DNA from: an uncultured Polaribacter sp.
GTDB taxonomy: Bacteria; Bacteroidota; Bacteroidia; Flavobacteriales; Flavobacteriaceae
DNA length: 64,000 nt
Direction: 5' to 3'
Assembly: GCA_963975825.1 (NCBI GenBank)
Contig: CAXBIR010000001.1
Location: 26,699-90,698, forward strand
In this document: in pieces, positions 12,578 to 24,467 of the stretch
How positions within the stretch are numbered: the first letter of the stretch is position 1
Layout of the letters: the number at the start of each line of letters is the position of its first letter
Position numbers and translations under genes: made by a program
Notes under the pieces: generated by a model
Databases searched by the model: none
Told to the model about the DNA's origin: nothing
The model's input: the letters and a program-made list of their open reading frames with translations, nothing else

Positions 12578-13492
12578 TTAACTTCTTCTACGATTAGTAT
12601 TTACTTCTTTCTTTTTATCTGTTTTTCTAACAGTAGATTTTCTAGTGTTATCTTTTTTAATTACTGTATTTCTAGAATTTGCTTTTCTAACGATAGGTTT
12701 TTTAACACTCTCAATTTTTCTTCTAGTATTTACATTGTTATTACCTCTAGTATTTGTAACTCTGTTAGACCTTGTATCTAGTTTTCTATCTGTGTTAGAT
12801 TTTCTGTAAGAAACATGTTCACGTTTTTTATATGTGTTGTTATTTCTATTTGTAGAAACTGGTTTTCTTCTTTTTAAAATCTTACTTTTATTACCAATTT
12901 TAGCATTTCTATTAGATTTGTAGTAATAATATCTATTGTCTTCTCTAAACTTTGTGTAGTTTCTTTTAAAATCATTCTTAAAAAAGAAAGCATCATTATA
13001 ACTCCAGATAGTTCCTAAGTTTAGGTTTATTCTAACACCATTATCATAATAGTAATTGTCTTTTACATTTCCATAAAATACAGGATCTCCAAATCTATTA
13101 TATTCAACATTTAAATTACCAACTCTAGTTAATCTATTTCTGTAATACCTCATATATGTATTACCAATTCTAGATACATTTCCTTTATAATCATAACTAA
13201 TTCCAACAGAACCAACACGTCTAACTCTACCTCTGTAATCTCTATCTATTGATACGTTGTTTCTTCTTACTCTTACTCCGTTATAGTTGTAATAAGCATC
13301 ATTAAAATTAGCATCAAAATCAAAATCTCCGTTAGTGAAAATAAAAAATTCTACACCTCTTTCTATAAAGTTTACAGAGTTATCATAAGAGTACATAACC
13401 CCAATGTTGTTTGGTAAATAATTGCCGTTTTTGGCTTCAACAGTAGAAACCATCATGAACATTCCTATTAATATAAGTACACCTTTTTTCAT
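12578..13492 (-). CDS. Hypothetical exported protein with ~16-aa beta-hairpin repeats and a Lys/Arg/Asn-rich tail
   Basis: CAT at 13490-13492; signal peptide; four repeats ending R(V/I)G or similar; basic C-terminal ~100 aa. Confidence 0.75.
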   Translation of the reverse strand: MKKGVLILIGMFMMVSTVEAKNGNYLPNNIGVMYSYDNSVNFIERGVEFFIFTNGDFDFDANFNDAYYNYNGVRVRRNNVSIDRDYRGRVRRVGSVGISYDYKGNVSRIGNTYMRYYRNRLTRVGNLNVEYNRFGDPVFYGNVKDNYYYDNGVRINLNLGTIWSYNDAFFFKNDFKRNYTKFREDNRYYYYKSNRNAKIGNKSKILKRRKPVSTNRNNNTYKKREHVSYRKSNTDRKLDTRSNRVTNTRGNNNVNTRRKIESVKKPIVRKANSRNTVIKKDNTRKSTVRKTDKKKEVNTNRRRS

Positions 13493-13558
13493 AATATATG
13501 GTTTTAAGGGTTTTGTCTACTCTAATTGCTTTTCGACTTCCGCATTTGATTTAGTATT

Positions 13559-13575
13559 TTCAAAGAACGTGCCAA
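13559..13575 (-). promoter_or_regulatory. sigma54-like -24/-12 element upstream of the 304-aa gene
   Basis: Minus strand TTGGCACGTTCTTTGAA: GG-N10-GA, compared with consensus YTGGCACGRNNNTTGCW. Confidence 0.45.
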
Positions 13576-13723
13576 AAAAATATTAAGTTGTTTGTGTAAT
13601 GTTGTTTTTGTTGAAAAATTAATATTTAATTAATTGTTTTTTAGGGATTTATGTTTTTTATAAATTCGCTTAAAACTCGTAAATTACAAGAAGTTTTTAC
13701 GACCATTAAAAGAAATAAAATTT

Positions 13724-14221
13724 ATGATTGAAGCTATTGAGCAAAATTTACAAAAAGGGATTCAACTATTAAAAAATATTTCTGATGAACAATATTCAAA
13801 TAAATCTGTAGCACCATATAATTCTAGTATTGGTTGTCATATGCGCCACATACTAGATGTTTTTTCTTGTGTTTTTAAAGGTTTAGACAATGGTTTAATA
13901 GATTTATCTGTAAGAGAAAGAAATGAATGTGCAGAAAAAGAGACATTAGTTGGTATTCAGTATTTTGAATTAATACTAAATCAGTTAGAAAAAATAAATA
14001 AAGAAGATTTTTATAATGAAATAAAAGTGATTGATGATATGGGTTTGGGAAAAGAAACGGCTAATTATACAGTTGGTGCTATTCTAATGCAAGCGCAAAG
14101 TCATGCTACACACCATTATGCAAGCATTGGTTATTTAGTTTATCAATTGGGTATTAAATTACCAAGCTCTAATTTTGGTTTTAACCCTACAACACCTAAA
14201 AAAATTGAAGTTAAGTTTTAG
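13724..14221 (+). CDS. DinB family protein
   Basis: SIGCHMRHILD and HATHHYA His motifs; FGFNPTT tail. Confidence 0.8.
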   Translation: MIEAIEQNLQKGIQLLKNISDEQYSNKSVAPYNSSIGCHMRHILDVFSCVFKGLDNGLIDLSVRERNECAEKETLVGIQYFELILNQLEKINKEDFYNEIKVIDDMGLGKETANYTVGAILMQAQSHATHHYASIGYLVYQLGIKLPSSNFGFNPTTPKKIEVKF

Positions 14222-14248
14222 AGAATATTAACATTATTATCTTGTAAG

Positions 14249-14265
14249 CTGGCATATATATTGTA
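14249..14265 (+). promoter_or_regulatory. sigma54-like -24/-12 element upstream of the serine hydrolase-NTT operon
   Basis: CTGGCATATATATTGTA: GG-N10-GT, 35 nt before the ATG at 14300. Confidence 0.4.
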
Positions 14266-14299
14266 TTATAAGTATAGTTATTAATAAAAATAAATAATT

Positions 14300-15211
14300 A
14301 TGTATTTACAGAAAATTAAGAAGCATTTATTAACAGTAACTTTATTAATATTCTCTATAGTTATCTATGGGCAAAATACTTTACCTATTAGTCATGTTGA
14401 CGATATTGATCCAATTTCGGGAATAGAAGACGTAGAACTTAAAGCAATACTTGTAAAAGAAATAAACTCTAATAAAAAATGGAAACGTTTAGTTGCGGGT
14501 AAACAAATGTCTTTAGGAATTGTAGATCTTAGTAATCCTAATAAATTTAGGTATGCAGGTATGAATGATAATTTTATGATGTATGCTGCAAGTTTACCTA
14601 AAATAGCTATTTTATTAGCAGCCATGGATGCTATAGAAAATGGAGAAATGGAATATACAGATGAAATTAAAAAAGATTTACGATTAATGATAAGTAAATC
14701 GAATAACCAAGCATCTACAAGAATGATTGATAGACTTGGTTATAAAAAAATTGAAGATGTTCTAAGAGCTCCAAAAAATAAATTATATGATGAGAATGTA
14801 GGAGGAGGTCTTTGGGTTGGTAAAAGGTATGCAGCATCTGGTAAGAGAAACCCAGACCCATTAAAAGGGCTTAGTCATGCAGCAACAACAAGACAGGTTT
14901 GTAGTTTTTATTACCAATTAGCGTTAGGTAATTTAATTAGCACAGAACGTTCTGCAGAAATGTTAGAAATTATGAAAGATCCTAAATTACATCATAAGTT
15001 TGTAAACACGTTAGATAAAATAGCACCCAAAGCAACTATTTATAGAAAATCTGGTTCTTGGAGAAACTATCATTCAGATTCTGCATTAGTTTGGGGACCA
15101 GAAAGAAAATATATTATTGTAGCTTTAATAGACAATGATTATGGTGAACAAATTATTAGAAATTTAGTAAAACCGCTAGAAAAGGTATTAAAAAAAGAAC
15201 GTTCTTTATAG
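14300..15211 (+). CDS. Exported serine hydrolase, class A beta-lactamase/PBP fold
   Basis: Signal peptide ...IYG|Q; SLPK (SxxK, Ser98), SNN (SxN) and KSG motifs. Confidence 0.85.
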   Translation: MYLQKIKKHLLTVTLLIFSIVIYGQNTLPISHVDDIDPISGIEDVELKAILVKEINSNKKWKRLVAGKQMSLGIVDLSNPNKFRYAGMNDNFMMYAASLPKIAILLAAMDAIENGEMEYTDEIKKDLRLMISKSNNQASTRMIDRLGYKKIEDVLRAPKNKLYDENVGGGLWVGKRYAASGKRNPDPLKGLSHAATTRQVCSFYYQLALGNLISTERSAEMLEIMKDPKLHHKFVNTLDKIAPKATIYRKSGSWRNYHSDSALVWGPERKYIIVALIDNDYGEQIIRNLVKPLEKVLKKERSL

Positions 15212-15232
15212 TCTACTATATGAAGTAAAACT

Positions 15233-18046
15233 GTGAGAAAAATTATAACAAAAACTTTTGGCTTAAGAGATGATGAAATACGCATCTCTTTTTTAATGCT
15301 CTTATATATCTTTATAGTTATTACTGTTTTGTTAATTGTAAAACCTACAGTTAATGCACTTTTTGTTTCCAAATTAGGCGCAGATAATTTACCATTTGGT
15401 TATTTATTAGTAGCAAGTGTTGCTGTTTTATCATCTTATTTTTACAATAAAGCAATTAGAGTTTTTTCGCTTGTTAAAGTAACAGTAATATCTCTTATTG
15501 TTTTTTGCTTAGCTTTTATAGCTCTTGGTTTAGTTATTAAGTATGCTTTAGTAAATACTTGGGTTCTGTATTTTTACTATACTTTTATTTCTCTTTTTGC
15601 TGTGGTTGCAACATCGCAATTTTGGTTGTTTGCCAATATGGTTTTTAATGCTAGAGAAGCAAAAAGAAATTTTGGTTTTATTGGAGCAGGAGCCATTGCT
15701 GGAGGAATTTTTGGTGGCTATTTAACAAGTATAATTGCTACAACATTTGGTAATGAATTTGCTATTTTTCTTTCAGCAATATTAATTTTACTTTGTATTC
15801 CTATTTTAAAGAAAGTATATAATTTAAAAATTAAGTTTTTAAATACCTTTAAGAGAAAACAAGTAATTGCAGACCAAGAAAATTTAGAAAGTTCTTCTTT
15901 AAGACTAATTTTAAAATCTAAACATCTAACGTATATTGCTTTAATTACCGGAATTGGAGTAGTTGTTGCAAAGTTGGTAGATTTTCAGTTTAGCGATTTT
16001 GCTCAAAAAGCAATGCCAGATTCTGATGATTTAGCCGCTTTTTTTGGTTTTTGGTTCTCAACTTTTAATGTTTTAGCATTGGTTATTCAACTATTTTTAA
16101 CCAACAAGATATTAACTAAATTAGGTGTTTCATCAACTTTATTAATTTTACCATTAACAATTGCACTTGGAAGTTTATTATTTTTAACGTTTCCAGAACT
16201 TTGGGTTTTAATTATTATAAAAGGTATAGATGGTAGTGCAAAACAATCTGTTAATAAAGCGGCCGTAGAATTGTCTATTATGCCAATTCCTATTCAAATT
16301 AAAAACCAAGCAAAATCTTATATAGATGTTGTTATAGATAGTGTTGCTACAGGTTTTGCAGGCTTTTTATTAATTTTTTTAATTAAAAGATTAGACTTAG
16401 ATACCTCTTATATTACCGTAATTATTTTACTATTCACCTTTGTTTGGATTCTCTTTATTTATCGTTTAAGAGAAGCTTACTTTTCTTCTTTTAAAGAAAA
16501 TATTCAAAAAACATTAACTACAGAATTCAATAAAAGTAAAAAGAATGAAAATACAATTTCAGACATTAAAAGTATATTTATTAACGGAGATGAAACTTCT
16601 ATTTTAAACGCATTAGATCGACTAAAAGATTACAAACAATCTTCTTTTAATAACTCTGTGGTAAAGCTGTTAGAGCATCCTTCAAATAAAGTAAAAGCAA
16701 GAGCAATAGAGTACTTAGATGCTTTTGAAGAGGTAGATGTTTTAGGTAAAATTGAAGAACTAGTTTATGTTAAAGACGACTTGTTAGTATATGTTTCTTT
16801 AGATTATATTTTAGCGCATTCGCCAATTACAGATGAGTCGTTTTTTAATAAATATTTAAATCATACTAATGAATATATTTCTAACGGAGCTTTACTTTCT
16901 TTATCTAAACAGAGTTTTAATAATGCTAAATTAGGTAATAAATACAATGTTTTAAGCAGATTAGAAGAGAAGGTAATAGCTTTAAATAAAGGCGATTTAT
17001 CTGATAGAAAAGAAGTTTTAGCAGGTTTATTAATGAGTATAGCTTATGCTAGAATGACTGATTATTATCATTTGATAAGCAAACATTTAAAAGATGAAAA
17101 TTCTTACATTGTTAAATTCGCAACAATTTCTGCAGGAATTACTTCTGATGAGATATTTATTGAAGATTTGTTAGATTTACTGTCAGTAAAAAAACACAGA
17201 AAAAGGGCCATTAAAGCACTCAGAAATTATGGACCAAAAATTATTGATTTTATATTTAAGTTAGATAAAAAAGGAATTTTAAAACCATCAACAAAAAAGT
17301 ATCTTCCTAAGATTATAGAATCTTTTAATAACGAAAAAGCATTAAGAGTTTTAATACGCCTTTTAAGAAATAAAAATGCTTTAACAAGGTTATATGCTTC
17401 TAACTCATTAATAAAAATACTTAAGAAAAACACTAATTTGTCTGTTGCTCCTAGAGTTATTAAAAACCAAATTTTAAGAGAAAGTAGTTATTATAAAAAT
17501 ACTTTAGAAATTATAGCTTCTTTACAACACTTAATTAACAAAGATCTTGATAATAAAGAGGGTTTAGAACTTTGTGAAGCAAGAGTAAATTTAATACCAG
17601 AATTAGAAATTTTACTAGACAATAATTTAAAATGCATTTTTAACTTACTAAGTCTTGTTTATAATGAAGAAGACATAAAAATGACTTATGTTGGTATACA
17701 AAGTGAAATAAAAGATGCTAAAATTAATTCTTTAGAGTTTTTAGATAATATTTTGCAGCGTAAAATAAAAACAATGATTTTACCAATTATAGAGCATTAT
17801 GTGGTTGATGATAAAAATTATAAATCTTCTGTTATAAATTTAAACATAATTAGAGAGAGAAAACTTTTACAGAGAATTGTAAGAATGGGTAATTTAAAAC
17901 TAAAAATTCTTGTTATTAAATACGTGGAAGTATCTAATAACAAGAATTTAATTGGTGTTTTGTTGCCGTTAAGTAAGTTTAAAAATATTGAAGTTAAAGA
18001 ATTGGCAACAAAAACATATCACTTATTTATTTCCAATAACAATTAA
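15233..18046 (+). CDS. NTT/TLC (Npt1/Npt2 ATP/ADP translocase family) transporter fused to a HEAT-like helical repeat domain
   Basis: GTG start; ~12 TM helices with FWLFAN..FNAREAKRNFG and IMPIP..IKNQAKSYIDVV; soluble C-terminal ~520 aa with LLEHPSNKVKARAIEYL-type repeats. Confidence 0.8.
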   Translation: MRKIITKTFGLRDDEIRISFLMLLYIFIVITVLLIVKPTVNALFVSKLGADNLPFGYLLVASVAVLSSYFYNKAIRVFSLVKVTVISLIVFCLAFIALGLVIKYALVNTWVLYFYYTFISLFAVVATSQFWLFANMVFNAREAKRNFGFIGAGAIAGGIFGGYLTSIIATTFGNEFAIFLSAILILLCIPILKKVYNLKIKFLNTFKRKQVIADQENLESSSLRLILKSKHLTYIALITGIGVVVAKLVDFQFSDFAQKAMPDSDDLAAFFGFWFSTFNVLALVIQLFLTNKILTKLGVSSTLLILPLTIALGSLLFLTFPELWVLIIIKGIDGSAKQSVNKAAVELSIMPIPIQIKNQAKSYIDVVIDSVATGFAGFLLIFLIKRLDLDTSYITVIILLFTFVWILFIYRLREAYFSSFKENIQKTLTTEFNKSKKNENTISDIKSIFINGDETSILNALDRLKDYKQSSFNNSVVKLLEHPSNKVKARAIEYLDAFEEVDVLGKIEELVYVKDDLLVYVSLDYILAHSPITDESFFNKYLNHTNEYISNGALLSLSKQSFNNAKLGNKYNVLSRLEEKVIALNKGDLSDRKEVLAGLLMSIAYARMTDYYHLISKHLKDENSYIVKFATISAGITSDEIFIEDLLDLLSVKKHRKRAIKALRNYGPKIIDFIFKLDKKGILKPSTKKYLPKIIESFNNEKALRVLIRLLRNKNALTRLYASNSLIKILKKNTNLSVAPRVIKNQILRESSYYKNTLEIIASLQHLINKDLDNKEGLELCEARVNLIPELEILLDNNLKCIFNLLSLVYNEEDIKMTYVGIQSEIKDAKINSLEFLDNILQRKIKTMILPIIEHYVVDDKNYKSSVINLNIIRERKLLQRIVRMGNLKLKILVIKYVEVSNNKNLIGVLLPLSKFKNIEVKELATKTYHLFISNNN

Positions 18047-19356
18047 TTGTCACTTTCATCTTTATCACTTTTATACTCCTCTTCTTTAATAACTGGTTTT
18101 TTAGCAACATTTGTTTCATCTATAATATCGTCTATTTTACTAGCCATGTACATGTGTGCCCCAGCAGAATTCTTATTTAAAACGTTAGACATTAAACAAA
18201 CAATGTATTTTAAACCATTAGGATGTTCTACTATAATTACAGAATTCATATAGTTAAAAACATTACCAGCGTAACTTTTACAATCAGGGTTTTTCTCTCT
18301 ATCACATTTGTAATAACTACCAGATTTAAAATAAACAGCTGCACTGTCTAACCTTGGCGATTTTGCATATCTAATTCTTCTATCCGTTAAATAAAGCAAT
18401 CTTTTCATCTCTAAACTAGATTCTTTATCTACCACATTACCTTGCTCTAATTGAACTAAAAACTTCATTAAACCTTTAGGCGTACCAATGCTTCCTCCTT
18501 TTCTACCTACATATTTTCCTGCAGGTCTTGTAAACATTCCTCCTAATTTCCATTCGTCTTCTTTAATACCTAGTTTTCTTAAAGGCTCATTAACAACAGA
18601 GTTAGCTAGGTTTGTAAGAGAATCTCTAGAAGTTTCTTTAAAGTAGTTTTCTGCTTTTTCTGCATCCAAGAAAAAGTAATCTTGTCCAAATGCAGCCATT
18701 AGCATAGCTTCTCTGTACATAACGCTTGCTGCGCCATTATTACTTACAGAAACCATATGATCTAACCACTCGTAAAGAGAAAATTCATCACTTGCAATTA
18801 CCTGTCTTTTGGTTAATTTATCTTTTTCAATATCGTAAACTGGTATTGTATGATGATCTCCTGTTCCCCAATATCTAGAAGTTACTTTTATATTTTTTAA
18901 ATATCCAGCTCTGTCTTCCCAAGAATTAGGGCAAAGTTTTTGTAGTTGATCAAAAACAGCTAATAAAACGGCTATTTTACCAACACTTCCTGGTTGGTAA
19001 CCTACATTTTCTCTATGTTCTGCGTATCTTAATTTGTCAGGATTACTCATATCCATAACTGTCATAGAATAAGCTCCTGCAGGAATAATTCTACTTAGTT
19101 TTCTTTCAAAATCTTTATCTACAACAAGTAAATCTTTAACACTATCTTTATTTCTATTAACTAAGTTTAATTTAATATCTGCTAATTTTTTATAAGCTCC
19201 AGCAGGTATTCTATTATACTTAACACTATCTAACTGAAATTTTCTAAGCTGATACAATCTTGCAATTCCTGTTGTTTCATACCCATCTATAGGGTATTTA
19301 ATAAAACCAAGTGATGTTACTATTAAAACGATTAATATGATGTTTTTTACTCTCAT
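18043..19356 (-). CDS. Exported serine hydrolase, class A beta-lactamase/PBP fold, with large insertion
   Basis: CAT at 19354-19356 (minus strand; track mislabelled). N-terminal signal/anchor; SVGK (Ser124), SNN and KSG motifs. Confidence 0.8.
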   Translation of the reverse strand: MRVKNIILIVLIVTSLGFIKYPIDGYETTGIARLYQLRKFQLDSVKYNRIPAGAYKKLADIKLNLVNRNKDSVKDLLVVDKDFERKLSRIIPAGAYSMTVMDMSNPDKLRYAEHRENVGYQPGSVGKIAVLLAVFDQLQKLCPNSWEDRAGYLKNIKVTSRYWGTGDHHTIPVYDIEKDKLTKRQVIASDEFSLYEWLDHMVSVSNNGAASVMYREAMLMAAFGQDYFFLDAEKAENYFKETSRDSLTNLANSVVNEPLRKLGIKEDEWKLGGMFTRPAGKYVGRKGGSIGTPKGLMKFLVQLEQGNVVDKESSLEMKRLLYLTDRRIRYAKSPRLDSAAVYFKSGSYYKCDREKNPDCKSYAGNVFNYMNSVIIVEHPNGLKYIVCLMSNVLNKNSAGAHMYMASKIDDIIDETNVAKKPVIKEEEYKSDKDESDN

Positions 19357-19357
19357 T

Positions 19358-22267
19358 TTATATTTTTTCTGTTAGCTTAATTTCTGTATTACTTTCTACT
19401 TTTGGCGCTATTGAGTTTAAATAATCTGAACTTTTAGCTTGTTTATTTTCTACAAATGGTCTTATCTGAAACAACCAAAGTTTATTGTCTTTAAATCCAA
19501 ATTCAACATCATAAGCATGTGATTCTTCAGTAGATTTATTTCCAATTTTATTTCTAATTTCAGAAGCCAGTTCTCTAATGTCATTCACATTACTTGTATT
19601 TAATATTGGCTGATTAAATGTTGTATAATATTTTTTTGTACTTCCTGTTGTTGGTAAACGTATATAATCTGGTTGTCTGGCAGGACTAAGTAAATAACTA
19701 CTTTCTGCTGTTATTAATCTTGTTTCTGCAGATTGCCCATCTACAGCGCCACCAGCTCCTCTACTAAATGCAACTGTTAAGTCGTTTTCAGAACCTTCAT
19801 TAATACCTTTTGTAATCATAACGCCAGAATAATCTACATCTACACTTGGTATTATTAATATTGATGGATATACATTTTCTGGATTTAATAAGTATTGCTG
19901 ACGCCACTTAAAACTTCTTTCTGTGTAAGCAGAAGCCCAAACTTGTTTAATTCCTTGAATAATTTTTTCTTCTTTTAAAATATTAAATAACGTTAAATTT
20001 AAGCCAGCTCCAGTAAATTCTTTTAAGTCTTCCATATTGGTGTCGCTTCTTAAGAATACAGGTACATTTCCTAATTTATCTCCAAATACATTTTTAAAAT
20101 TATCTTTTAAATCATCCGTAAAACTTTCGTCTAAATTGATGTTTAAAATAGCAGCATGTAATTCTGATAAAGAATTTATTAGAAACTTTTCTACTGCTTC
20201 ATCTGAAGTATTATTGCTTTTTAATTCTTTCGCTTTTGTAAAAGTTGCATTTAAAAATTCCCAATAACTTTTATTTTTATTAGGCATTTCTTTGTTCATG
20301 TGAGATTTAAAAATTCCAAACGGAATAATTATTCCTTCAACTACTTTATTTGGAAATAAGTTTTTTAACTCTCCTAAATTAGCAGCTTTTGGGCCGCATA
20401 AAATACCAGAATCTGTAGCTTTTACATCTCTCATGTTAATAATTTTAGAAACATCTAACTTTAATTTGTCAGTTGGTACTTCAATCATATTTTTAGTTCT
20501 CTCCTTCTTATCAAATAATTTTTTCTCTTCAGCAGTCATTTCATTTTCTAATTTTAAAATGACGTTTCCTTTATTGGAAACTGCGTAAAAAACGTTTTTA
20601 TCGGTGTACTTTTCTAGAGATTTTAAGTTTTCATTTGATAAAGCAGCATTAGGTATTCCTAAGTTTCTTGCTAATAATTGTACATGAGAAACTAAATTTC
20701 CTTCAGAAACAGTCATAATTCCTGCAACTGGTTTTAAATCTGCAGGTGGTTTTTGAAAAATATAAATGTTGTTTGTATTTACTTCAACTTTATCTGGGTT
20801 ACCATCTACAACAATTAATTTACCAAATGCATAACCAGGGTTTAAACCTCTTATAGCGCCTTGGTTAGTAATACTCATTACATTGTTATTTACTTCAGAA
20901 ATTTTTGCAGCAAAATTATTTAGTTTGCTAACAGTTTCCCCTAAATTTAAAGTAATAGAATTTCTAATTCTATCGTCTATAAAACCGTAAGCTAAAGACT
21001 CAAAAGCTGCGTATTCATTTACATCTTCTTGGTAATTTGCTTTTACTAAAGAAGTACTCCATTCTACAATTCTTCTAGCATTTGTAACTAGAGAATTTAA
21101 CTCTCCTAAAGTTGTTTTTTCTTTATTTAAAGCAGAGGAAAAAACAGGTTTTACTACATCAAATTCCCAAGCTTCTACAAGACCGGTTGCGTAGGAAGCA
21201 CAGGTTAAAGTTTGTGTTTTTAAAATTGTTTCTTCTAATGTATCAGTATTCCAATTTTGACTTTCGATTAATAAAATTTTTTCTAATTGATTTGTTAAAT
21301 CTAAAAGGATTAAACGGTCTTTACTATCTTTAAATAACGCAATATTATATCTTAAAAAATCTAAATTATCTGTAATTTTTATAACAATATCTTTTGCAGA
21401 AAAGCTAGTTTTATCTTCATTAATAAAAGCTTTTAAATTTTTAAGAACTTCATTATCATCATTAACTTTAGATAGTTCTTTTGAAATGGTTTTATAGTTT
21501 AATGGCGCATAAAACTCATTCATGGTACTTAATAGTCTGTCAAAAAGTTTTTTTTCCTTAATAGAAATTTTAGAAGCATTTTTCTTGATGTAATTCTGAA
21601 CTAAATAAATATCTGTCTTTTGTGGATTTCCATGAATTTTAATTCTAATATCCATAAAGTCAGGAATTTCTTCAGCTAATATTTTAGACTCGCTTCGCAT
21701 TAATTGCGCAATATTAGAATCTCCATTATGTGGAATATCTTTCAAAGATTGTCTAATTAAGTAATAATTAGAGTTTAAAAAAGAATCGTCTTTTAAAACA
21801 GTTTCATAAAATTCCTTTCCCCAAGCTTCTTCATCTTCAGATTGAATAGCACCTCTATAATATTGTCCTTTTTTTAAAACCCAACCATTATCTAAGCTTG
21901 CTAAATATAGTCCAATTTGATATTGTTTTAATCTGCTAAAATTATGTGTAGCATCTAAAAAATCTGTTGTTTTTAAACTAGCTAATATTTCACCAAAAAA
22001 TAAATGATTACTCTTTCTTAAATCTAATGCAGATTGTTTAAAAGATGCATGTTGAATTCCCCCACCTATAGAATCTGGGCAAGGGTCTTTAGAATCTCTA
22101 ACAGAACCATCTTTACAGAACCATTTAATTCTGTAATATGGACCTCTGATATCATTTTTGTAAGAATCTATTAATTGTTTTATATCGTTATTACTTTTTT
22201 TCTGTGAAGTAGCTTTTAAGCTAAAAAGCAATACAATTGTAAAGGTAAGTAGTAGTTTTTTTTTCAT
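19358..22267 (-). CDS. Signal-peptide-bearing PEP-utilizing/dikinase-family protein (helical domain, phospho-His swivel domain, C-terminal ATP-grasp)
   Basis: CAT at 22265-22267. MKKKLLL...ATS|Q; GNLVSHVQLLARNLGIP (His528); GPKAANLGEL, LRSDTNMEDL..FTGAG, VWASAY, SGVMIT and DVEFGF...LFQIRP. Confidence 0.85.
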   Translation of the reverse strand: MKKKLLLTFTIVLLFSLKATSQKKSNNDIKQLIDSYKNDIRGPYYRIKWFCKDGSVRDSKDPCPDSIGGGIQHASFKQSALDLRKSNHLFFGEILASLKTTDFLDATHNFSRLKQYQIGLYLASLDNGWVLKKGQYYRGAIQSEDEEAWGKEFYETVLKDDSFLNSNYYLIRQSLKDIPHNGDSNIAQLMRSESKILAEEIPDFMDIRIKIHGNPQKTDIYLVQNYIKKNASKISIKEKKLFDRLLSTMNEFYAPLNYKTISKELSKVNDDNEVLKNLKAFINEDKTSFSAKDIVIKITDNLDFLRYNIALFKDSKDRLILLDLTNQLEKILLIESQNWNTDTLEETILKTQTLTCASYATGLVEAWEFDVVKPVFSSALNKEKTTLGELNSLVTNARRIVEWSTSLVKANYQEDVNEYAAFESLAYGFIDDRIRNSITLNLGETVSKLNNFAAKISEVNNNVMSITNQGAIRGLNPGYAFGKLIVVDGNPDKVEVNTNNIYIFQKPPADLKPVAGIMTVSEGNLVSHVQLLARNLGIPNAALSNENLKSLEKYTDKNVFYAVSNKGNVILKLENEMTAEEKKLFDKKERTKNMIEVPTDKLKLDVSKIINMRDVKATDSGILCGPKAANLGELKNLFPNKVVEGIIIPFGIFKSHMNKEMPNKNKSYWEFLNATFTKAKELKSNNTSDEAVEKFLINSLSELHAAILNINLDESFTDDLKDNFKNVFGDKLGNVPVFLRSDTNMEDLKEFTGAGLNLTLFNILKEEKIIQGIKQVWASAYTERSFKWRQQYLLNPENVYPSILIIPSVDVDYSGVMITKGINEGSENDLTVAFSRGAGGAVDGQSAETRLITAESSYLLSPARQPDYIRLPTTGSTKKYYTTFNQPILNTSNVNDIRELASEIRNKIGNKSTEESHAYDVEFGFKDNKLWLFQIRPFVENKQAKSSDYLNSIAPKVESNTEIKLTEKI

Positions 22268-22286
22268 TTTCTTTTCTTTGGTAATA

Positions 22287-22294
22287 CAAATCTA
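22287..22294 (-). promoter_or_regulatory. -7 TAnnTTTG element for the dikinase-hydrolase operon
   Basis: Minus strand TAGATTTG, 19 nt upstream of the ATG. Confidence 0.45.
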
Positions 22295-22414
22295 ATTTTT
22301 TAAAAGTCAGTAATGAACTTTAGAACTTATTAAGACTAATAAAAAAACGAAATGAGTTAAAAAAAGTTTAGTTTTTAAGAAAATTGAAGAAAAAAGAGAA
22401 TCGAATAACTGTTT

Positions 22415-23407
22415 TTATTGTTTTAAGAAGGTGTAAGTCTGTTTATTTTGCTGAATATAAACCTCTTTACAACTTGTAGGGTGAATAAAATTATACGTTT
22501 CTAAATGATTAAAATTAGTTTTTTCTGCATAAAACAAACCTTCAAAATCTTTAATTCCATCAGAATTATATCTAGATATTTTGTAAGCACCTAAATCAAT
22601 TTTGTCTTCAATTTTAAACCAAGCACCACTTCCAATTCCTCCTAACCAAGTTCCGTTTTCTAATTTAAAAACCTTTAAATTAGGTTTTTCTGTTCCTATT
22701 AAATTGGGTTCTCCTTCAAACTTGTTTAAAAAAGAAGATTTATATTCTTTAACAATAGATCTATTTTTATAGTATGTAATTTCTTGATTATAAACATTAA
22801 AGATTTTATTGTCTGTATTTGCTTTTATTACGTTTCCAATAGGACTTGGTGTTAATAAATTAGATTTTTTTAATTGTTTACCAATTTTTTTATTCTCTGA
22901 AGAAGCAATAATTGTATCTGTTACAAATCTTGCACAATTTGTTCCGTTTTTAATAAAAGCACCATAAGGTATTTCTTTTTCGTCTATTAATTCTTGAATA
23001 AATTTTTGCGCTTTTTTAAAATTTATTTCATTGTGAATGCTAGCTACTAATCTACCATCTCCATGTGTTTTCTCAGGATGATTTTCTATCCAAAGTAAAA
23101 TTTCTTCAACGTTTAAAATTTCATTATTCTTAAAATTTGCCTTAATTGTAACTTCTAATTCTGGGTCTGTTTCTTTACATCTAACTCTACCATTTCCGTA
23201 ACTTGTAATGTATCTTCCAAAATCGAAATAATTTATTTCTGAATTGTTTTTTTGAAGTAATAACAACGCAGCATGACCAGCTTGTACAGCATGCTCGCCA
23301 CCAATACCAATTTTAGGCCAAAAATTACTTAAAGTTTCCCAGTAAGCAGGCCTTACAATCGTATCTGGATACGAAAGTATAATGATGATTCCATCAGAAA
23401 TTTGCAT
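22415..23407 (-). CDS. DUF6695-like protein; predicted permuted papain-like His/Cys catalytic pair
   Basis: CAT at 23405-23407; AGHAALL, YFDFGRY and GTNCARFV. Confidence 0.65.
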   Translation of the reverse strand: MQISDGIIIILSYPDTIVRPAYWETLSNFWPKIGIGGEHAVQAGHAALLLLQKNNSEINYFDFGRYITSYGNGRVRCKETDPELEVTIKANFKNNEILNVEEILLWIENHPEKTHGDGRLVASIHNEINFKKAQKFIQELIDEKEIPYGAFIKNGTNCARFVTDTIIASSENKKIGKQLKKSNLLTPSPIGNVIKANTDNKIFNVYNQEITYYKNRSIVKEYKSSFLNKFEGEPNLIGTEKPNLKVFKLENGTWLGGIGSGAWFKIEDKIDLGAYKISRYNSDGIKDFEGLFYAEKTNFNHLETYNFIHPTSCKEVYIQQNKQTYTFLKQ

Positions 23408-23408
23408 T

Positions 23409-23654
23409 TTATGAATTATTAAAGATAGCTTTTAGTAAAATCTGAAATGTTTTAAAAGCGAAGAAAATTGTAAAAATTATTAGTATTGCTGCAACTGTAA
23501 TAATAATGTAAGATAAAAACTCTTGCGGTGTGTTATTAAACTTTTTTAAAGCTTTAAAACCCATTGTAAGCGTAATTGGCGATGCTATAAAAAGGAAAAT
23601 TAAAATACCCAAGTATTTTAAACCTTTACCTAATAAGTTAACGTTTGTACTCAT
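23409..23654 (-). CDS. Small 2-TM protein (DUF6095-like)
   Basis: 81 aa; GKGLKYLG...ASP followed by two hydrophobic helices. Confidence 0.65.
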   Translation of the reverse strand: MSTNVNLLGKGLKYLGILIFLFIASPITLTMGFKALKKFNNTPQEFLSYIIITVAAILIIFTIFFAFKTFQILLKAIFNNS

Positions 23655-24463
23655 TTTTTATAATTTTTTATAGAATTTCTAACATTACCATACTTTTCTA
23701 ATAATGTAGCAGCTTCAGTTTGGTCGATATTTAATTCTTTAGCTAACATTTTTTGACCTCTTTCTACTAACTTGTTGTTAGATAGTTGCATATCTACCAT
23801 TTTGTTACCTTTAATTTTTCCTAATTGAATCATTGTAGCTGTAGAAATCATATTTAGAACTAATTTTTGTGCGGTTCCAGCTTTCATTCTCGAGCTTCCA
23901 GTAACAAACTCTGAGCCAACAACAACTTCTATAGGGTACATAGAAACTTTAGCCAAAGGACTATTATTATTACAAGCAATACAACCAGTAATAATATTAT
24001 TCTCGTTACATTTTTCTAAAGCAGAAATTACATAAGGCGTTGTGCCAGATGCAGCAATACCAATTACAACATCTTTTTCTGTTATTTGGTGTTCTTTTAA
24101 GTCTAACCAACCTTGCGTTTTAGAATCTTCTGCAAATTCTACAGCTTTTCTAATAGCAATATCTCCACCAGCAATAATACCAACTACAAGTTCATGTGGT
24201 ACACCAAAAGTTGGCGGACATTCTGAAGCATCTACAACACCTAATCTACCAGAAGTTCCTGCTCCAATGTAAAATAATCTTCCTCCTTCTTTTAATTTTT
24301 TAACAATATTAGTTGTTAGAATTTCTATTTGAGGTAAAGATTTTTCTACAGCAATTGGTACTGTTTTATCTTCGTTATTAATGTTGCTTAATAATTCTTT
24401 AACACTCATCTTTTCTAGATGGTTGTATTTAGAATCTTGTTCTGTAGTTTTTATAAAAGTCAT
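23651..24463 (-). CDS. murQ: N-acetylmuramic acid 6-phosphate etherase
   Basis: GAGTSGRLGVVDASECPPTFG, GIAASGTTPYV and GSSRMKAGTAQKLVLNMIST. An alternative ATG lies at 24466. Confidence 0.93.
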   Translation of the reverse strand: MTFIKTTEQDSKYNHLEKMSVKELLSNINNEDKTVPIAVEKSLPQIEILTTNIVKKLKEGGRLFYIGAGTSGRLGVVDASECPPTFGVPHELVVGIIAGGDIAIRKAVEFAEDSKTQGWLDLKEHQITEKDVVIGIAASGTTPYVISALEKCNENNIITGCIACNNNSPLAKVSMYPIEVVVGSEFVTGSSRMKAGTAQKLVLNMISTATMIQLGKIKGNKMVDMQLSNNKLVERGQKMLAKELNIDQTEAATLLEKYGNVRNSIKNYKK

Positions 24464-24467
24464 CATT

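Follow-up and report, generated by a model that had tools for sequence, protein, structure and literature searches.

We examined a stretch of 64,000 nucleotides (nt) of an uncultured Polaribacter sp., called the window below, in which the interval 14300-22267 carries four genes. They encode two putative exported serine enzymes (HydA and HydB), a membrane carrier of the TLC/NTT family that ends in HEAT repeats (NTT-HEAT) and a dikinase-like enzyme with a predicted signal peptide (DIK). The window has a G+C content of about 28% and its nearest relatives at the level of the locus are Polaribacter species. All four open reading frames (ORFs) listed in a preliminary description of this DNA are present and intact (Table 1). 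They form two convergent units, HydA with NTT-HEAT and DIK with HydB, which overlap by 4 nt at their stop codons, and the gaps reported within the units, 21 nt in the first and 1 nt in the second, are correct. Promoter-like sites in 13500-23500 numbered 50 against 56 expected, with a consensus that does not cover Bacteroidota promoters, and terminator-like sites 3 against 2.4 expected.

Table 1. Genes, predicted domains and neighbours of the four-gene cluster in the window (aa, amino acids; TM, transmembrane; positions are those of the window)
Feature	Position	Strand	Size or residues	Description
HydA	14300-15211	+	303 aa	Intact ORF; predicted exported class-A beta-lactamase/PBP-A-fold serine enzyme
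NTT-HEAT	15233-18046	+	937 aa	Intact ORF, GTG start
NTT-HEAT membrane domain	15233-16507	+	1-425	TLC/NTT-family, about 12 TM helices
NTT-HEAT C-terminal HEAT-repeat domain	16550-18046	+	about 440-937	Predicted cytoplasmic
HydB	18043-19356	-	437 aa	Intact ORF; predicted exported PBP-A/class-A beta-lactamase-fold serine enzyme with insertions
DIK	19358-22267	-	969 aa	Intact ORF
DIK signal peptide	22205-22267	-	1-21	MKKKLLLTFTIVLLFSLKATS, followed by Q after the predicted cleavage site; single hydrophobic stretch 5-19
DIK N-terminal domain	20873-22204	-	22-465	Probable acceptor-binding domain, fold unmatched
DIK phospho-histidine swivel	20588-20860	-	about 470-560	Catalytic His528 (by alignment)
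DIK ATP-grasp	19358-20470	-	about 600-969	Nucleotide-binding domain by Pfam, NCBIfam and PDB matches
Basic protein	12578-13492	-	304 aa	Signal peptide; no Pfam match
TseH-like protein	22415-23407	-	330 aa	TseH-like domain and DUF6695 C-terminal domain
DUF6095 protein	23409-23654	-		Small membrane protein
MurQ-like protein	23651-24466	-		SIS-domain protein

The preliminary description had proposed that the four genes belong to a joint module and had looked to their co-occurrence across genomes. When one genome per genus from 200 Flavobacteriaceae genera was searched with each of the four proteins, DIK was found in 40 genomes and full-length NTT-HEAT, HydB and HydA in 39 each. These are the same genomes, the sole mismatch being a 610-contig assembly with only a partial DIK, so that a single pattern of presence and absence is shared over the 200 genera; the genome of the window itself is a further one with all four genes. 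The other 160 genomes contained none of the four genes at the thresholds used, and six of the 200 encode an unrelated TLC protein of 430 aa (22-26% identity). Among 300 sampled Bacteroidota genomes DIK was present in seven, from three families and two classes, and an orthologous carrier accompanied it in all seven. The module occurs in the cultured marine genera Polaribacter, Kordia, Dokdonia, Winogradskyella, Aquimarina and Tenacibaculum.

Gene order was followed in 58 genome loci encoding DIK relatives, in which the four genes and the window neighbours were located by tblastn. The arrangement DIK>HydB> <NTT-HEAT<HydA is kept in the Flavobacteriaceae loci with enough flank and in a Fulvivirga locus while the flanking genes change; the one exception is Tenacibaculum adriaticum (L020), where HydA was not seen within the flank. 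The same order was found in 37 of 42 metagenome loci that have at least 8.5 kb downstream (from a further set of 80), and one of the 42 lacked HydA in the flank. These metagenome loci were all Bacteroidota-like, with 43-62% identity, and added no new phyla. Other lineages are rearranged. A genome of another family (G340) has DIK>HydB>NTT-HEAT> <HydA, and in one genome (G038) a carrier copy is found in each of two half-clusters, HydA>NTT-HEAT> <DIK and NTT-HEAT> <HydB. Genomes in which the genes have been unlinked retain the full set, with the carrier 2 Mb from the other three (G149), HydA 3.3 Mb away (G114) or two gene pairs 70 kb apart (G197). The earlier remark that each half of the cluster contains one hydrolase is true of the window arrangement, but the gene order differs in other lineages. 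DIK-HydB is the tightest pair.

A functional unit predicts an all-or-none pattern, co-retention of the genes when unlinked and a variable order, as found, and we consider it very probable that the four genes constitute a functional four-gene envelope module. The joint module of the preliminary description thus has strong support: the genes co-occur, their linkage withstands rearrangement and the set is conserved in several phyla. A shared mobile or variable genomic island whose genes have no joint function is very improbable. Its patchy spread, in about 20% of Flavobacteriaceae genera and in distant phyla, would fit horizontal transfer, as would its absence from some congeneric genomes: two from the genus of the window have neither DIK nor NTT-HEAT, and in one of them (G179) HydA and HydB were also searched for and not found. 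Against this, no mobility genes flank the cluster, no distinct composition block marks it (GC 0.25-0.33 throughout the window), the four genes persist while flanks vary between genera, and they are co-retained when separated by 70 kb to 3 Mb. Gene order moreover varies between lineages, and the Burkholderiales described below link a different carrier architecture. In the complete genome of Lacinutrix neustonica HL-RS19 (L053:10001-17051) DIK is broken by at least three frame changes and NTT-HEAT lies in two frames, with HydA and HydB intact, which means either that the ATP-using enzyme and its carrier are decaying together or that the assembly contains indel errors.

DIK reads, from its N-terminus, as signal peptide, N-domain, phospho-His swivel and C-terminal ATP-grasp. 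Residues 624-948 match PPDK_N (PF01326) in Pfam with an E-value of 6.7e-28 (98 bits against a cut-off of 27), the C-terminal part is also matched by N-terminal regions of phosphoenolpyruvate (PEP) synthases in NCBIfam, and a PDB sequence search aligns the ATP-grasp with PEP synthase 8a8e at 3.8e-15. Residues 474-552, GNLVSHVQLLARNLGIP, align with the swivel of PEP synthases 8a8e and 9dae, a match that is weak alone (i-Evalue 0.65); the alignment centres on TSHAAIVSRELGIP and puts His528 on the catalytic histidine. No match to the swivel family PF00391 reached E 0.01 in Pfam. Among 50 orthologues G523 N524 and S527 H528 VQLLARNLGIPN are invariant, as are the SHVQLLARNLGIPN block and the nucleotide and Mg motifs GPK627AANLG, R740SDTNMED747, E922 and Q934IRP937. 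Because His528 and the ATP-grasp motifs are invariant, DIK is, judged by its motifs, not a dead enzyme.

The N-terminal domain is specific to the family. An AlphaFold2 (AF2) model of residues 1-465 has a predicted local distance difference test score (pLDDT) of 86 and consists of a small beta-sheet followed by an all-alpha domain. It found no fold match in the PDB (best E 0.23, TM score below 0.2), and residues 1-470 have no match in Pfam; without a fold match the acceptor cannot be guessed from structure. The domain contains 42 invariant residues, including Y137 R138 G139 Q142 E144 D145 E146, H180, R191, R208 K210 H212 and D219, and the abundance of Arg, Lys, His, Asp and Glu among them hints at a ligand that is polar or anionic. 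Out of 1.84 billion representatives, a profile of the domain matched 799 clusters. In the list of the 150 best matches, full-length members measure about 930-1050 aa (most of them 960-1000) and are uniform in architecture with the domain at the N-terminus.

The preliminary description had assigned export signals to DIK, HydA and HydB and had regarded a periplasmic dikinase as essential to its proposal. By reading of the sequences, all three N-termini in the window have a positive n-region, a hydrophobic core of 12-15 residues and a small-residue cleavage site. This signal-peptide character is kept in the 50 DIK orthologues, which come from four phyla, and in HydA and HydB orthologues of four phyla as well, while the signal sequences themselves are not conserved; the proteobacterial DIK signals have AxA-type cleavage sites. 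Conservation of mature DIK begins right after the signal with RGPYxxIKWFCKDG, and a cysteine pair (C51 with C63/64) is found in 50 of 50 orthologues. That DIK instead has an uncleaved anchor or a mis-called start, with cytoplasmic catalytic domains and a regulatory or coincidental link to the carrier, deserves little credence. The signal-peptide call does rest on reading of the sequences, yet the positive n-region, an h-region of only about 13 residues and the A-x-S/A-x-A sites next to it are kept throughout the 50 orthologues, the conserved mature part starts just past the signal, an invariant cysteine pair follows, and both partner enzymes have signals and belong to an exclusively extracytoplasmic fold. 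An exported DIK is therefore the reading that its conserved signal favours.

In databases DIK carries the annotation 'phosphoenolpyruvate synthase' or 'PEP/pyruvate-binding domain-containing protein'. Its best sequence matches are indeed PEP synthases (8a8e, 9dae) and rifampin phosphotransferases such as 5hv1 and 5fbs, and it appears to share the PF01326 ATP-grasp and swivel-His chemistry with enzymes of the PEP synthase, PPDK, rifampin phosphotransferase and PigC type. The label PEP synthase is not supported: there is no TIM barrel (no Pfam match to PF02896, the PEP/pyruvate-binding domain), the domain order is permuted (N-domain, His, ATP-grasp as opposed to ATP-grasp, His, TIM in PEP synthase and PPDK) and the score against the NCBIfam PEP synthase equivalogs, 95 bits, is far under their cut-off of 598. 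DIK also lacks the rifampin-binding domain of rifampin phosphotransferase and, unlike PEP synthase-type enzymes, has a signal peptide for export.

In layout DIK resembles the alpha-glucan and phosphoglucan, water dikinases (GWD and PWD), in which an N-terminal substrate part is likewise followed by a phospho-His swivel and a C-terminal PPDK_N ATP-grasp and which also have no PEP/pyruvate TIM barrel. GWD and PWD work in plastids, which receive ATP through the plastid NTT, and the likeness extends to the module, in which a dikinase is again paired with an NTT-family carrier and would work in a compartment without ATP production of its own. The differences are as clear. DIK has no CBM45 or CBM20 starch-binding modules and its N-domain matches no solved fold, so that by its domains it is not a member of the GWD/PWD family; it bears a bacterial Sec signal and is predicted to be periplasmic, whereas GWD and PWD reside in the plastid stroma, which is equivalent to cytoplasm; and it is tied genetically to two PBP-fold enzymes.

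HydA and HydB are predicted to be divergent members of the fold of PBP-A, a DD-peptidase closely related to class A beta-lactamases, and share the SxxK, SxN and KSG motifs of these enzymes. HydA, with the signal peptide MYLQKIKKHLLTVTLLIFSIVIYG, matches Beta-lactamase2 (PF13354) at 5.1e-20 in Pfam; S98xxK101, S134xN136 and K250SG252 are invariant (at least 97%) in 44 orthologues. No relative of HydA was found in the PDB by sequence search, and its score against the NCBIfam class A beta-lactamase model bla_class_A is 21 bits where the cut-off is 200. HydB matches PF13354 at 3.1e-10. It has no match to bla_class_A and no sequence-level match in the PDB, either as a single sequence or as a profile of 24 sequences. 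Its AF2 model (pLDDT 87) points to the fold of Thermosynechococcus elongatus PBP-A and class A beta-lactamases: the top Foldseek match is PBP-A 2j7v (E 3e-10, TM score 0.72 on the target) followed by class A beta-lactamases, at only 11-16% identity. HydB has about 170 additional residues, among them YP(I/L)DG(Y/F)xxTGIxRL, with which conservation of the mature protein begins after the signal. S124xxK127, S205xN207 and K344SG346 are invariant among orthologues. A cysteine pair (C351/C359) is nearly invariant and both residues are lost together in two loci (L027 and L028); this pair and that of DIK are consistent with disulfides of extracytoplasmic proteins. An equivalent of the omega-loop Glu166 could not be assigned with confidence from alignments of either HydA or HydB. 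Since the modelled fold of HydB resembles that of a DD-peptidase, an action of the SxxK enzymes on peptidoglycan or peptides is suggested. A beta-lactam or other antibiotic resistance island is not favoured, given the strict four-way co-inheritance with the carrier and scores far under the beta-lactamase and rifampin phosphotransferase cut-offs, both of which point to a single pathway and not to separate resistance genes; an antibiotic is a possible acceptor for DIK.

The assignment of the carrier in the preliminary description to the TLC/NTT family stands. NTT-HEAT matches TLC (PF03219; TC 2.A.12) at 2.5e-14 (53.4 bits against a Pfam cut-off of 21), and the top PDB matches of its membrane domain are the plastid and bacterial ADP,ATP carriers 9j3j (5e-7) and 9j3n. 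The generic family MFS_1 is matched at 2.8e-8, with 33.5 bits, at the MFS_1 cut-off. The tail matches HEAT_2 (1.7e-9) and alpha-repeat proteins of the PDB, and no cNMP-binding domain was found by Pfam. Hydropathy and reading of the sequence give 12 helices, with an N-terminus and a central loop rich in K/R. The tail follows TM12 and hence lies on the same side as the N-terminus, so that it is predicted to be cytoplasmic, where no contact with the exported proteins is possible. By domain architecture we placed the carrier with the NTT-HEAT fusions, which are widely distributed in bacteria and uncharacterised, 43 Bacteroidetes NTT sequences having been listed (Major, Embley and Williams 2017, PMC5381601). 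Like these, it combines a TLC/NTT domain with C-terminal HEAT repeats in one ORF; the same study gives no link of NTT-HEAT to an exported dikinase or to PBP-fold enzymes. Its similarity to the characterised NTTs is distant (best E 5e-7 in the PDB), and because of this its substrate is not readable from sequence.

The DIK-linked carriers form one subfamily, other NTT-HEAT paralogues (27-31% identity) being present without DIK. They comprise two subtypes with 44-56% and 35-42% identity to the window carrier and different N-termini, and the genome with two half-clusters has both, one beside HydA and DIK and the other beside HydB (L065:6071-12807, L066:6126-10303). Paralogues of about 910 aa and 27-29% identity that are not linked to DIK were seen in another Bacteroidota family (G301 and G454; L059:7940-15337, L060:97-10934, L061:4048-11422). 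There they stand in a conserved cluster with an Omp85-like outer-membrane protein, a 565-aa lipoprotein without a family match, a lipoprotein calcineurin-like metallophosphoesterase and a MarR regulator, which makes a second case of NTT-HEAT beside exported phospho-enzymes. In the genome whose carrier lies 2 Mb from its partners, the neighbour of that carrier is a RimK-like ATP-grasp ligase with a fused domain that is a putative zinc protease (L064:10224-11618). NCBIfam places an NTT-HEAT paralogue in the 'NTP/NDP exchange transporter' superfamily.

The module extends beyond Bacteroidota. Metagenome-assembled genomes (MAGs) of Burkholderiales, Steroidobacteraceae and Bryobacterales encode full-length DIK at about 30% identity with HydB downstream, and HydA is convergent in those loci that reach far enough, except for one (L055) in which it was not seen though the locus extends far enough; a Bryobacterales MAG has DIK, HydB and HydA together. 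In 11 of 11 Burkholderiales loci with enough upstream sequence a HEAT-less carrier of 430-450 aa (TLC 3e-12) lies upstream on the same strand as DIK, giving the order TLC-only carrier, then DIK>HydB> <HydA. These carriers score equally on TLC and MFS_1 and reach about 100 bits to DIK-linked and to paralogous NTT-HEATs alike; they are either orthologous or independently recruited. DIK is thus linked to a TLC-type carrier in two lineages that are very far apart and differ in the architecture of the carrier. Five of the Burkholderiales loci (L043:6864-9896, L052:50-2281, L055:7007-9634, L046 and L050) contain, between carrier and DIK, an unusual fusion of an SDF-family sodium:dicarboxylate symporter with a family-3 periplasmic solute-binding domain. 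In NCBIfam it scores best against GltP, DctA and a cystine-binding protein, in each case far under cut-off, and in L050 the fusion is apparently continuous with the TLC carrier in one ORF of 1159 aa. In the Bryobacterales MAG a PhoD-type phosphatase gene adjoins HydA (L040:6973-8508).

From the observed gene content, export signals, motifs, co-inheritance and conservation we infer a scheme that includes ATP transport and its direction, an acceptor and a role for the hydrolases. DIK would be exported by Sec into the periplasm, where its ATP-grasp would bind a nucleotide triphosphate and transfer the beta-phosphate to His528 of the swivel; the phosphate would then pass from His528 to an acceptor held by the family-specific N-domain, the overall reaction being ATP + acceptor + water or phosphate to AMP + phospho-acceptor + Pi or PPi. 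Since the periplasm itself offers no source of ATP and the carrier is co-inherited, we propose that the TLC/NTT-family carrier delivers ATP across the inner membrane, most simply in exchange for spent adenine nucleotide; an exchanger facing high cytoplasmic ATP would export it without any special mechanism. The cytoplasmic HEAT tail may serve as a regulator or scaffold. HydA and HydB would share the substrate of DIK and process it either before or after the phosphate is added; a peptide with D-amino acids or a component of the cell wall is the most plausible candidate. The supply of nucleotide is central to this scheme, since an exported ATP enzyme needs a source and the sole co-inherited membrane protein belongs to a family in which every characterised member transports nucleotides (PMC5381601). 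Co-inheritance and export signals together suggest a periplasm fed with ATP. For the full mechanism, in which the carrier supplies periplasmic nucleotide triphosphate, DIK phosphorylates an acceptor and the hydrolases share its substrate, we estimate a probability of roughly 45%.

As to the acceptor, peptidoglycan or a D-amino-acid peptide is our leading guess, prompted by the PBP-A likeness and, weakly, by the amino-acid-type uptake fusion in Burkholderiales. By analogy with the phosphorylation of starch by GWD, we tentatively picture NTT-fed periplasmic ATP driving the exported dikinase on a substrate of the envelope, which could be peptidoglycan or one of its peptide derivatives, with the two PBP-A-like enzymes acting on it afterwards.

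Several observations weigh against an ATP-exporting carrier that serves DIK. The carrier is a distant relative of the NTTs, with 53 bits to TLC, and the generic MFS_1 model fits nearly as well, so that a non-nucleotide cargo is possible. Dikinases release AMP, and to our knowledge the characterised NTTs exchange ATP/ADP, other NTPs or NAD, AMP not being among their known substrates. Periplasmic ATP could leak through porins, which looks wasteful unless it is channelled. The co-occurrence counts are not phylogenetically independent, four of the 42 metagenome loci have DIK-HydB alone within 8-11 kb, and a TLC gene was seen neither in the short Bryobacterales contig nor within 7 kb upstream in the Steroidobacteraceae contig.

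The first of these points leads to a module whose carrier moves the acceptor, a precursor or a product of the hydrolases, in the way that AmpG acts as a muropeptide permease, and whose DIK obtains its nucleotide by another route. The weak TLC match beside an MFS_1 score at cut-off and the equal TLC and MFS_1 scores of the Burkholderiales carriers would agree with such a role, and HydB is DD-peptidase-like, so that a muropeptide-like cargo is conceivable. However, the nearest solved relatives are ATP/ADP carriers with no other MFS family among the PDB matches, the paralogue classified by NCBIfam falls among NTP/NDP exchangers, and the ATP supply of an exported, motif-intact DIK would be left unexplained; we regard this cargo as improbable.

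Reversing the direction of transport is also unlikely, although slightly less so. Here the carrier would import a nucleotide or a phosphorylated product from the periplasm for scavenging, and DIK would use environmental nucleotide or form ATP from AMP and a phosphorylated donor. The characterised bacterial NTTs are importers or exchangers that serve uptake (PMC5381601). The layout of the NTT-HEAT paralogues beside an Omp85-like protein and a lipoprotein metallophosphoesterase could suit a system that takes up and processes phospho-compounds from outside, the Burkholderiales fusion of symporter and binding domain is an uptake device, and the PhoD phosphatase adjoins HydA in the Bryobacterales locus. 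These neighbours, however, are lineage-specific and stand outside the conserved core. In seawater and soil the concentration of dissolved ATP is much too low for a dikinase to run on, and we know of no high-energy phosphate donor in the periplasm for the reverse reaction. Delivery of ATP to DIK from the cytoplasm accordingly stays our preferred reading.

The remaining neighbours in the window (TseH-like, DUF6095, MurQ-like and DinB) are common almost only to Polaribacter loci. The TseH-like protein, directly upstream of DIK and without a signal peptide, combines a type VI effector-like domain (PF25218, 1e-65) with the DUF6695 domain; its gene is a neighbour in most Polaribacter loci, and in L027 and L045 it lies close to DIK but on the other strand. 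The MurQ-like protein is of the N-acetylmuramic acid 6-phosphate etherase type and would point, weakly, to cell-wall sugar-phosphate metabolism. As a clue to peptidoglycan the MurQ-like and TseH-like genes were given little weight, being adjacent mainly in Polaribacter loci. On the other side of the cluster, the 304-aa protein has an Asn/Tyr/Arg-rich body and a very basic C-terminal third rich in Lys/Arg/Asn/Thr, and it is conserved beside the module in Polaribacter.

In textbooks the periplasm is without ATP, and known periplasmic modifications use lipid-linked or other pre-activated donors. An exported ATP-grasp/swivel-His enzyme that is strictly co-inherited with a relative of ATP/ADP carriers challenges this assumption and, if the proposed mechanism is true, would belong to the first ATP-driven enzymatic pathway in the periplasm. 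Our literature searches on NTT-HEAT, periplasmic ATP or dikinase, extracytoplasmic kinases, ATP export and flavobacterial ADP translocase found no description of the module. Two divergent penicillin-binding-type enzymes together with a domain of unmatched fold may point to an unrecognised modification of cell wall or peptides, and the small gene set in cultured marine genera means that direct experiments can be attempted. Ever since NTT-type carriers were described as widely distributed (PMC5381601), it has been asked what they do in free-living bacteria. The module suggests a specific role for them there that experiments can address and, if our proposal is correct, would give them their first assigned function.

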